From: Escherichia coli
Lineage (GTDB): Bacteria > Pseudomonadota > Gammaproteobacteria > Enterobacterales > Enterobacteriaceae
Reading direction: 5' to 3' (one strand)
Length of the DNA: 64,000 nucleotides
Assembly: GCF_002854065.1 (NCBI RefSeq)
Contig: NZ_CP024147.1
In this document: piece by piece, positions 34,299 to 53,645 of the stretch
Layout: each line of letters starts with the position of its first letter
Position numbering within the stretch: the first letter of the stretch is position 1
Notes under the pieces: generated by a model
What the model was told of the DNA's origin: nothing
What the model saw: only the letters and a program-made list of their open reading frames with translations
Database searches by the model: none
Made by a program: the position numbers and the translations under genes

Positions 34299-35468
34299 TT
34301 AGCTGTTAGCAACGCAAACTGTTTCAGGTTGTTTTCTGGCTGACATAAACACCAGCAATAATGCCAGTCCCGCGACAATCGCCCCCATCACCGGCACAAA
34401 GCTGTATCCCAGCCCAGCGGAAATTACCGCACCACCAGCGGCTGCTCCCAGCGCATTTCCAAGATTAAAGGCACCAATATTGACTGATGAAGACAGACCT
34501 GGCGCTTCACTGGCGACACGCATCACGCGCATCTGTAACGGCGGTACGACCGCAAAGGTTGCAGCGCCCCACACCACCATGCTAATAGCTGCGCCGAACT
34601 CATTGCGGGCCAGGAACGGGATTGCCAGCATAATCACCATCAGCAGCAACAAAAAGCCTTTCAACGTGCCGTTAACTGAACGATCTGCCAGTTTGCCGCC
34701 GAGATAGTTACCGATAGAGAATCCGACACCAATCAGCACCAGCATTGCCGTGACGAACACCGGTGTTGCGTGGGTAATACTTTGCAGTACCGGAGAGATA
34801 TAGGTGTAGAGAGTAAACATTGCACCAGCTCCCAGTACCGTCGTCAGCAATGCAGACAGCACCTGCGGACGCATTAATACCGCCAGCTCTTTTTTCACTT
34901 CAGGTCGTGCCCCTGCACCACCTTTAGGTAATGAGAAGAACAGACTTACCATTGAAATCACTCCCAGCCCCGCCGTTGCCAGAAATGACATCCGCCAGCC
35001 GATGGTTTCACCCAACCAGGTCGCCGCCGGCACGCCACCGATATTTGCCAGGGTTAACCCCATAAACATAGTGGCAACTGCGCTGGCCTGTTTATGTTTT
35101 GGCACCACGCTTGCAGCCACGACTGAACCCAAACCAAAAAATGCTCCATGATTCAGGCTGGTCAAAATGCGTGAAAGCATCAGGGTCATATAATCCGGCG
35201 CGATGGCGGAAAGTACGTTGCCGAGCGTGAAAATTGCCATCAGGAAAATCAACGCACTGCGGCGGGCACGATGAGAAAGTAGAAGCGTCATCAGCGGCGC
35301 GCCAACCATTACGCCAACTGCATAGGCACTGATTAACATTCCGGCAGCGGGAATCGAGACATCCACACCGCGCGCAATGACGGGCAACAAGCCCATTGGC
35401 GAGAACTCCGTTGTCCCGATACCAAACGCGCCAATCGCCAGCGCCAGCAACGGATAGTTAATTTTCAT
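34299..35468 (-). CDS. ydhP: MFS transporter
   Basis: 389-aa 12-TM-like ORF; recognised. Confidence 0.9.
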   Translation of the reverse strand: MKINYPLLALAIGAFGIGTTEFSPMGLLPVIARGVDVSIPAAGMLISAYAVGVMVGAPLMTLLLSHRARRSALIFLMAIFTLGNVLSAIAPDYMTLMLSRILTSLNHGAFFGLGSVVAASVVPKHKQASAVATMFMGLTLANIGGVPAATWLGETIGWRMSFLATAGLGVISMVSLFFSLPKGGAGARPEVKKELAVLMRPQVLSALLTTVLGAGAMFTLYTYISPVLQSITHATPVFVTAMLVLIGVGFSIGNYLGGKLADRSVNGTLKGFLLLLMVIMLAIPFLARNEFGAAISMVVWGAATFAVVPPLQMRVMRVASEAPGLSSSVNIGAFNLGNALGAAAGGAVISAGLGYSFVPVMGAIVAGLALLLVFMSARKQPETVCVANS

Positions 35469-35632
35469 GCCTTATCTCCACCTCTTCGCGTCATTACGCG
35501 ATATTCATTAAAGTGGCGAAAGCATGCAGCAATCACAAAAAAATGAAAATAACAAAAAGAGAAAACACTTTTGCCATTTTGCTAACAAACAGGAAGGAGA
35601 TGCGAGGGAGAACGCGCTCCCTCGAGAGGAAA

Positions 35633-35722
35633 TCAGTGCAGCGCGGCAGTCAAACCCACGGCTACGATCAAACCGAGGACGATAATCGTTGTTACCAGTG
35701 AAAATTTAAGGTCGGTGCTCAT
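35633..35722 (-). CDS. ynhF: 29-aa small membrane protein YnhF
   Basis: Hand-translated minus strand: MSTDLKFSLVTTIIVLGLIVAVGLTAALH, stop TGA; below ORF-track cutoff. Confidence 0.75.
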   Translation of the reverse strand: MSTDLKFSLVTTIIVLGLIVAVGLTAALH

Positions 35723-35959
35723 CAAGTTTTCTCCTTTTTTATTACCACACAAAAAGTGATATTACGCATTTTTACACACTGTGATGAAAAAATCTCCCGT
35801 CATTTATAATGATAAGTGTTTTTACCACTTCCCCTTTTCGTCAAGATCGGCCAAAATTCCACGCTTACACTATTTGCGTACTGGCCATTGACCCCTTCCT
35901 GACGCTCCGTGTCGTTTTTCCGGCGTACCGCAACACTTTTGTTGTGCGTAAGGTGTGTA

Positions 35960-35975
35960 AAGGCAAACGTTTACC
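35960..35975. promoter_or_regulatory. PUR box (PurR operator O1) in purR leader
   Basis: aaggcaaacgtttacc matches PurR operator core GCAAACGTTT. Confidence 0.6.
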
Positions 35976-36020
35976 TTGCGATTTTGCAGGAGCTGAAGTT
36001 AGGGTCTGGAGTGAAATGGA

Positions 36021-37046
36021 ATGGCAACAATAAAAGATGTAGCGAAACGAGCAAACGTTTCCACTACAACTGTGTCACACGTGATCAACAAAACACGTTT
36101 CGTCGCTGAAGAAACGCGCAACGCCGTGTGGGCAGCGATTAAAGAATTACACTACTCCCCTAGCGCGGTGGCGCGTAGCCTGAAGGTTAACCACACCAAG
36201 TCTATCGGTTTGCTGGCGACCAGCAGCGAAGCGGCCTATTTTGCCGAGATCATTGAAGCAGTTGAAAAAAATTGCTTCCAGAAAGGTTACACCCTGATTC
36301 TGGGCAATGCGTGGAATAATCTTGAGAAACAGCGGGCTTATCTGTCGATGATGGCGCAAAAACGCGTCGATGGTCTGCTGGTAATGTGTTCTGAGTACCC
36401 AGAGCCGTTGCTGGCGATGCTGGAAGAGTATCGCCATATCCCAATGGTGGTGATGGACTGGGGTGAAGCAAAAGCTGACTTCACCGATGCGGTCATTGAT
36501 AACGCGTTCGAAGGCGGCTACATGGCCGGGCGTTATCTGATAGAACGCGGCCATCGCGAAATCGGCGTTATCCCCGGCCCGCTGGAACGTAACACCGGCG
36601 CAGGCCGCCTTGCCGGTTTTATGAAGGCGATGGAAGAAGCGATGATCAAGGTGCCGGAAAGCTGGATTGTGCAGGGTGATTTTGAACCTGAATCCGGTTA
36701 TCGCGCCATGCAGCAAATCCTGTCGCAGCCGCATCGCCCTACTGCCGTCTTCTGTGGTGGCGATATCATGGCAATGGGCGCACTTTGTGCTGCTGATGAA
36801 ATGGGGCTGCGCGTCCCGCAGGATGTTTCGCTGATCGGTTATGATAACGTGCGCAACGCCCGCTATTTTACGCCGGCGCTGACCACGATCCATCAGCCAA
36901 AAGACTCGCTGGGTGAAACAGCGTTCAACATGCTGTTGGATCGTATCGTCAACAAACGTGAAGAACCGCAGTCCATTGAAGTGCATCCGCGCTTGATTGA
37001 ACGCCGCTCCGTGGCTGACGGCCCGTTCCGCGACTATCGTCGTTAA
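36021..37046 (+). CDS. purR: purine repressor PurR (LacI family)
   Basis: 341-aa ORF; N-terminal [26 protein letters not shown]; recognised. Confidence 0.97.
36049..36064. promoter_or_regulatory. second PUR box (operator O2) within the first codons of purR
   Basis: gagcaaacgtttccac; two downstream operators are the known arrangement for purR autoregulation. Confidence 0.55.
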
Positions 37047-44611: not shown

Positions 44612-44688
44612 GCGTTCATAGCTCAGTTGGTTAGAGCACCACCTTGACATGGTGGGGGTCGTTGGTTCGAGTCCAATTGAACGCACCA
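44612..44688 (+). tRNA. valV: tRNA-Val (anticodon GAC)
   Basis: gcgttcatagctcagttggttagagcacc...cttGACat...ggttcgagtcc...acgcacca; cloverleaf with encoded CCA. Confidence 0.95.
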
Positions 44689-44692
44689 TCCT

Positions 44693-44769
44693 GCGTCCGT
44701 AGCTCAGTTGGTTAGAGCACCACCTTGACATGGTGGGGGTCGGTGGTTCGAGTCCACTCGGACGCACCA
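44693..44769 (+). tRNA. valW: tRNA-Val (anticodon GAC), second copy
   Basis: Near-identical copy 4 nt downstream of valV; differs in acceptor/T-arm bases. Confidence 0.95.
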
Positions 44770-44876
44770 GATTTTCTTAATCTGGTCTTCTCCTTTTTCC
44801 CTCTGCTTCTTCTCTGTATCCAATACGTTAAAAGATTTACACTGTCTTCGTATGCGTTATCAGAAGGAGAATCGCT

Positions 44877-45182
44877 ATGGCAACTTTGTTACAACTTCAT
44901 TTTGCTTTTAATGGCCCATTTGGCGACGCAATGGCTGAGCAGCTTAAACCACTTGCTGAGTCGATTAATCAGGAACCTGGTTTTCTGTGGAAGGTATGGA
45001 CAGAAAGTGAAAAGAACCACGAAGCCGGCGGGATCTACCTTTTCACTGATGAAAAAAGCGCCCTTGCCTATCTGGAAAAACACACTGCCCGACTGAAAAA
45101 TCTCGGCGTTGAGGAAGTTGTCGCCAAAGTTTTCGATGTCAATGAGCCACTGAGTCAAATCAATCAGGCAAAACTCGCCTGA
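44877..45182 (+). CDS. ydhR: putative monooxygenase YdhR (dimeric alpha/beta barrel)
   Basis: 101-aa [27 protein letters not shown]...; recognised. Confidence 0.9.
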
Positions 45183-53631: not shown

Positions 53632-53645
53632 TTGATCATTATCAA
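53632..53645. promoter_or_regulatory. FNR box (TTGAT-N4-ATCAA) upstream of ydhY
   Basis: ttgatcattatcaa is a perfect FNR consensus, ~200 bp upstream of the ydhY start in an AT-rich intergenic region. Confidence 0.65.

Follow-up and report, generated by a model that had tools for sequence, protein, structure and literature searches.

The 29-codon frame between ydhP and purR of Escherichia coli is cydH (formerly ynhF), the orphan gene for the fourth subunit of cytochrome bd-I

Introduction

Purified cytochrome bd-I of Escherichia coli carries a fourth subunit, a single helix of ~3 kDa that was identified as YnhF by LC-MS/MS (Thesseling et al. 2019, PMC6853902). The same work placed ynhF outside the cyd operon, in the interval from ydhP to purR, and noted that its product is made at low oxygen (citing Hemm 2008, 2010, Guan 2011 and Fontaine 2011 on its discovery and induction) and retains its formyl-methionine; the subunit was proposed to block the dioxygen channel that is used in the Geobacillus enzyme. 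The protein, now called CydH, has been located in the cleft between TM1 and TM9 of CydA, where it shields heme b595 (PMC8951039; PMC12648545), on the side opposite to CydX (PMC12648545). The CydA-CydB-CydX-CydH heterotetramer was found again in structures at 2.4-2.6 A (bioRxiv 10.1101/2025.10.10.681541), and the 29-aa protein, its initiator methionine formylated, has been recorded intact and at 100% coverage by top-down proteomics (PMC12529367). Proteobacteria whose bd oxidases have a long Q-loop are reported to carry homologues of CydH (PMC8951039), and E. coli bd-II is described as having no CydH-type subunit (PMC8585947).

CydX, AppX and CydS are comparable small subunits of cytochrome bd oxidases; like CydH, they are single-helix membrane proteins of less than 40 aa that bind CydA (PMC12648545; PMC8951039). 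CydX and CydH differ in several respects. The gene for CydX is part of the cydABX operon, whereas cydH is an orphan at another chromosomal site. CydX binds close to heme b558, on the other side of CydA, and assembly and stability depend on it, whereas CydH has been proposed to gate oxygen access. PMC12648545 and PMC8951039 give no sequence relationship between the two proteins.

Results and Discussion

The reading frame, its start codon and its ribosome-binding site

In the stretch of 64,000 nucleotides of E. coli DNA analysed here (the window), a sequence-only reading had claimed a 29-aa single-helix ORF on the minus strand between ydhP and purR. Translation of the window gave exactly the product that had been written: the minus strand encodes MSTDLKFSLVTTIIVLGLIVAVGLTAALH followed by TGA, that is 29 codons and a stop (ATG AGC ACC GAC ... 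CAC TGA), with the ATG at 35722..35720 and the TGA at 35635..35633. A ribosome-binding site 5' of the claimed ATG was also found, the AAGGAG listed in Table 1, and the GGAG ends between 5 and 9 nt 5' of the start codon in all 65 sequences compared (58 of them with a spacing of 8 nt). The default cut-off of the ORF-listing tool is 60 aa and would therefore hide a frame of 29 aa, which makes the claim that an ORF track had missed it plausible; the mechanical ORF listing contains a 39-aa version of the same frame, which starts at TTG 35752. An ORF so short is uninformative by itself: a total of 77 ORFs of 20 aa or longer overlap the 4.5 kb around it, so a 29-codon ORF alone is not above chance, and for this reason the conservation of the frame was tested.

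Conservation as a coding sequence

A degenerate DNA pattern, in which codons 1-2, 4-9 and 29 plus the stop were fixed and codons 3 and 10-28 were free, was run against a single genome of each species. The pattern matched 64 species, all of them Enterobacterales, from Citrobacter, Enterobacter, Salmonella, Leclercia, Lelliottia, Kosakonia, Pluralibacter, Phytobacter, Superficieibacter and Silvania, together with four Erwiniaceae-type loci. An uninterrupted, hydrophobic 29-codon frame preceded by a Shine-Dalgarno sequence was present in 64 of the 64 matched species, and the architecture of the product, a short polar N-terminus (MSTDLK) and then one hydrophobic transmembrane helix, was the same in the 64 orthologues. 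In the 61 distinct DNA sequences, variation in the free codons 10-28 lay mainly at third positions: mean column entropy was 0.52 bits at codon position 1, 0.28 at position 2 and 1.32 at position 3. Furthermore, pooled pN/pS over these codons was 0.26, compared with 2.66 in the +2 frame, and the +1 frame contained stops in every one of the 61 sequences. All these data show that cydH evolves as a protein-coding sequence under purifying selection.

The neighbourhood of the gene was also conserved. At every locus with enough flanking sequence, purR lies divergently, about 280-300 nt from cydH, and at the four Erwiniaceae-type loci cydH is still beside the divergent purR while ydhP is absent, which indicates that the linkage of cydH with purR is older than the neighbourhood with ydhP.

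Identity of the gene

Database evidence identified the frame as the gene already known as cydH. Of 5426 complete E. coli genomes, 5425 contain a 601-nt stretch that includes the ORF, with at least 99% identity in 4949, and the RefSeq features lying under it are cydH ('cytochrome bd-I accessory subunit CydH'), the divergent purR, and ydhP. In E. coli CUWW06, whose DNA matches the query at 100% identity, the annotated cydH CDS is exactly the 90-nt frame, and the gene neighbourhood reads punC, punR, purR, cydH, ydhP, sodB, mepH. The peptide matched the NCBIfam equivalog NF033411 ('small_mem_YnhF') with 50.2 bits against a cut-off of 30 (E = 1.7e-13), residues 1-29 of the protein aligning with positions 1-29 of the 29-position profile, and it is identical at 29 of 29 residues to chain H of PDB 6RKO ('Uncharacterized protein YnhF / CydH'), a chain that is shared by eight PDB entries. 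The exact peptide also occurs in the public protein collection, both as 'stress response protein YnhF' and as 'cytochrome bd-I accessory subunit CydH', and its 90% cluster holds 163 members, mainly single-substitution variants.

The earlier claim of a match to the known small protein YnhF thus agrees with RefSeq, NF033411, chain H of 6RKO and the public collections alike. In sequence, in length and in its position between purR and ydhP the frame is identical to CydH/YnhF/CydY of cytochrome bd-I; it is the same gene, for which the sequence-only reading had used the older name ynhF. The evidence of translation that this reading had asked for already exists, since the peptide was detected by mass spectrometry in purified bd-I (PMC6853902) and as an intact protein by top-down proteomics (PMC12529367), and translation is therefore demonstrated at the protein level. 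The ORF is lifted above chance by its Shine-Dalgarno sequence, the frame kept in 64 species, the pN/pS value, the NF033411 match and the identity over the whole of the structural chain. Our analysis also confirmed that cydH is an orphan, lying between purR and ydhP and not in the cydABX operon; cydAB maps elsewhere on the K-12 chromosome. Nothing contradicts the identification, and we are practically certain that the locus is cydH of E. coli (the former ynhF, also cydY), an orphan 29-codon gene for the fourth subunit of bd-I that is divergent from purR and lies upstream of ydhP.

A few irregularities were seen among the complete E. coli genomes. The 601-nt stretch is absent from one of the 5426, one copy lies on a plasmid, and in E. 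coli PCN061 (NZ_CP006636.1, 1697641..1699019) an IS1A is inserted inside the purR-cydH-ydhP stretch.

Table 1. Coordinates of the features at and around cydH in the window.
Feature	Position	Strand	Basis or remark
ydhP, 389-aa MFS transporter ORF	34299..35468	-	flanks the cydH ORF
G+C-rich hairpin CGAGGGAG-CGCGTT-CTCCCTCG, beginning 8 nt past the cydH stop	35603..35624	-	minimum-free-energy fold of 35560-35640
Match to Rfam RF02081, 'STnc550 enterobacterial sRNA'	35630..36020	-	396.5 bits; gathering score 48
cydH (ynhF) coding sequence, one transmembrane helix	35633..35722	-	translation, RefSeq, NF033411, 6rko_H, conservation in 64 species
Shine-Dalgarno AAGGAG, 8 nt 5' of the cydH ATG	35731..35736	-	sequence and conservation
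TGTAAAAAT element (TGnnAAAAT), candidate extended -10 of cydH	35768..35776	-	conservation
AGATTTTT block, about 12 nt 5' of TGnnAAAAT	35787..35796	-	conserved, Erwiniaceae included
Palindromic PurR-type operator AGGTAAACGTTTGCCT in the purR 5' region	35961..35976		
purR, 341-aa LacI-family repressor ORF	36021..37046	+	flanks the cydH ORF

The purR-cydH spacer and the hairpin 3' of cydH

In an alignment of 14 genera, the Shine-Dalgarno sequence and the cydH ORF were conserved, and two short blocks just 5' of the gene, AGATTTTT and TGTGnAAAAAT, were kept in all genera. The TGnnAAAAT element ends 39-45 nt 5' of the cydH ATG in 65 of 65 sequences, Erwiniaceae included, with a distance of 45 nt in the window, and is a candidate for the extended -10 promoter element of cydH, which would give a leader of roughly 35-40 nt. 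A scan of 35300..36200 with the sigma-70 consensus found no canonical promoter. Both TGnnAAAAT and AGATTTTT may be promoter or regulator sites through which the gene is induced at low oxygen. Regarding the oxygen response, a motif scan allowing up to two mismatches found no FNR-like site upstream of cydH that would explain it; the sole nearby match to the FNR-type site (TTGATnnnnATCAA), at 35712..35725, overlaps the start codon, carries two mismatches and is at chance level, and it was rejected.

On the purR side of the spacer, the 11-nt core of the operator, TAAACGTTTGC, was invariant in 14 of the 14 genera aligned. This operator serves purR autoregulation. The spacer also has a long block whose conservation is confined to Enterobacteriaceae and which probably belongs to the promoter region of purR. 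The operator at ynhF/purR has also been listed as a GalR-bound ChIP site (PMC5110547), and in Salmonella a MarA/RamA ChIP peak has been reported in the purR<>ynhF spacer (PMC10268841).

Downstream of the gene, the GGGAG...CTCCC stem of the hairpin was conserved in almost every genus, the loop varied, and a few compensatory changes lay at the stem base. Compensatory changes were found in just two of the six predicted pairs, the conservation being mainly one of sequence, and for this reason covariation support is not claimed. A terminator scan of 35300..36200 returned three terminator-like matches, none of which coincides with this hairpin, as it is not followed by a T-run. The structure is probably a 3'-end or terminator-like stem-loop and, lacking a U-tract, would not be a textbook intrinsic terminator. 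Its arms (GAGGGAG...CTCCCTC) resemble Shine-Dalgarno and anti-Shine-Dalgarno sequences.

Alternative readings of the locus

The frame overlaps a match to the Rfam family STnc550, whose score is far above the gathering score (Table 1), so that the locus could be taken for a non-coding small RNA in which the 29-codon frame is incidental. All of model positions 1-388 are matched, and positions 296-385, its 3' 90 nt, are the cydH ORF. However, the family ends at the base preceding the purR start codon and 3 nt beyond the cydH stop, boundaries which suggest that it was defined from an intergenic region and not from mapped transcript ends. No structure is annotated over the ORF in the model, and third codon positions are variable in its consensus there. 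At its 5' side the family overlaps the control region of purR, and much of the conservation in that part is accounted for by the PurR operator and the control of purR on the other strand. A full-text literature search returned no mention of STnc550. Against a non-coding locus stand the conserved coding character of the frame, intact in every matched species with the low pN/pS given above, and the CydH peptide itself, seen by mass spectrometry and by cryo-EM; detection of the protein refutes STnc550 as the exclusive explanation, and we give this reading virtually no weight. STnc550 is the same DNA as the cydH locus, catalogued as non-coding, and is most reasonably taken for the purR-cydH spacer together with the cydH mRNA and not for an independent sRNA. 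With similarly negligible probability the real product would be longer, either 39 aa from TTG 35752 or 30 aa from TTG 35725, which adjoins the ATG. The former is the start of the mechanically listed ORF, and one database entry holds a partial form of CydH extended by MCGNKKGENL; the latter is found immediately 5' of the ATG in 60 of 65 sequences. Nevertheless, the Shine-Dalgarno sequence of cydH falls within the proposed N-terminal extension, which is not conserved: 45 of the 65 sequences have an in-frame stop 2-6 codons 5' of the ATG that makes the 39-aa form impossible there, and in Erwiniaceae no TTG adjoins the ATG. In addition, the modelled CydH chain of the PDB entries begins MSTDL, and intact-mass proteomics describes a formylated 29-aa species with full coverage, the published masses fitting the 29-aa form (PMC12529367). 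Both longer forms were therefore rejected, which leaves the 29-codon cydH.

A further possibility accepts cydH as coding and gives its transcript a second role as a regulatory RNA, by a long leader antisense to the purR 5' UTR or by a 3' hairpin fragment. The spacer shows unusually high conservation in Enterobacteriaceae and has been catalogued as an sRNA, and the 3' hairpin is conserved too. Moreover, the ynhF mRNA is one of five transcripts whose start-site 5' end, extended by <200 nt, accumulates when RNase G is inactivated (PMC4191395), which implies that RNase G trims the 5' end of this mRNA. On the other hand, the invariant TGnnAAAAT element is so close to the ATG that it suggests a short leader; in Erwiniaceae the conservation of the spacer is lost apart from the PurR operator, as expected if the upstream conservation serves purR; and the hairpin shows little covariation. 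A literature search found no experimental report of a regulatory-RNA role for cydH. Taken together, the sequence evidence on the cydH transcript points to a short leader, and a dual function appears very unlikely. More specifically, a 388-nt STnc550 leader lying antisense over the purR 5' UTR and operator, or a stable 3'-hairpin fragment, might couple the expression of the purine repressor to the low-oxygen induction of cydH, a coupling that we consider exceedingly unlikely.

Proposed role of CydH in cytochrome bd-I

Taking the locus as cydH, its mRNA is translated from the ATG at 35722 by means of the AAGGAG Shine-Dalgarno sequence, and the product, keeping its formyl-methionine, forms one transmembrane helix in the inner membrane. 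This helix docks between helices 1 and 9 of CydA as the fourth subunit of the CydA-CydB-CydX-CydH bd-I quinol oxidase, where it shields heme b595 from the lipid phase and is proposed to plug the wide lateral oxygen entry known from the Geobacillus enzyme. As a consequence of this plug, O2 would reach heme d via a narrow channel that begins in CydB. CydH levels rise at low oxygen, when bd-I is used. Channel blocking and substrate selectivity by CydH are inferred by the structural papers, and the literature passages searched for YnhF, CydH or CydY contained no cydH deletion phenotype or mutant test of the channel-blocking role.

Other features of the window

Away from the cydH locus, the window contains two tandem tRNA genes on the plus strand (44612..44685 and 44693..44766), the second of which is overlapped on the opposite strand by a match to the Rfam family 'HPnc0260 antisense RNA' (44731..44893). 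A match to the Rfam sRNA rydB lies at 63661..63721 on the minus strand (81.6 bits), and the motif scan found a perfect FNR/CRP-type palindrome, TTGATCATTATCAA, at 53632..53645.

Conclusions

The gene cydH has already been annotated, structurally solved and functionally assigned, and the locus offers no new biology. With respect to the sequence-only reading, three points can be updated: the current name is cydH (also cydY), the function of the product is no longer unknown, and caution is needed with the overlapping Rfam 'sRNA' family, since a match to STnc550 at this locus should not count as evidence for a non-coding gene. The value of the result is in quality control, as it illustrates that the length cut-off of an ORF track can hide genuine genes such as cydH, which encodes a subunit of a respiratory oxidase, and the cytochrome bd oxidase that contains CydH is being pursued as an antibacterial target.
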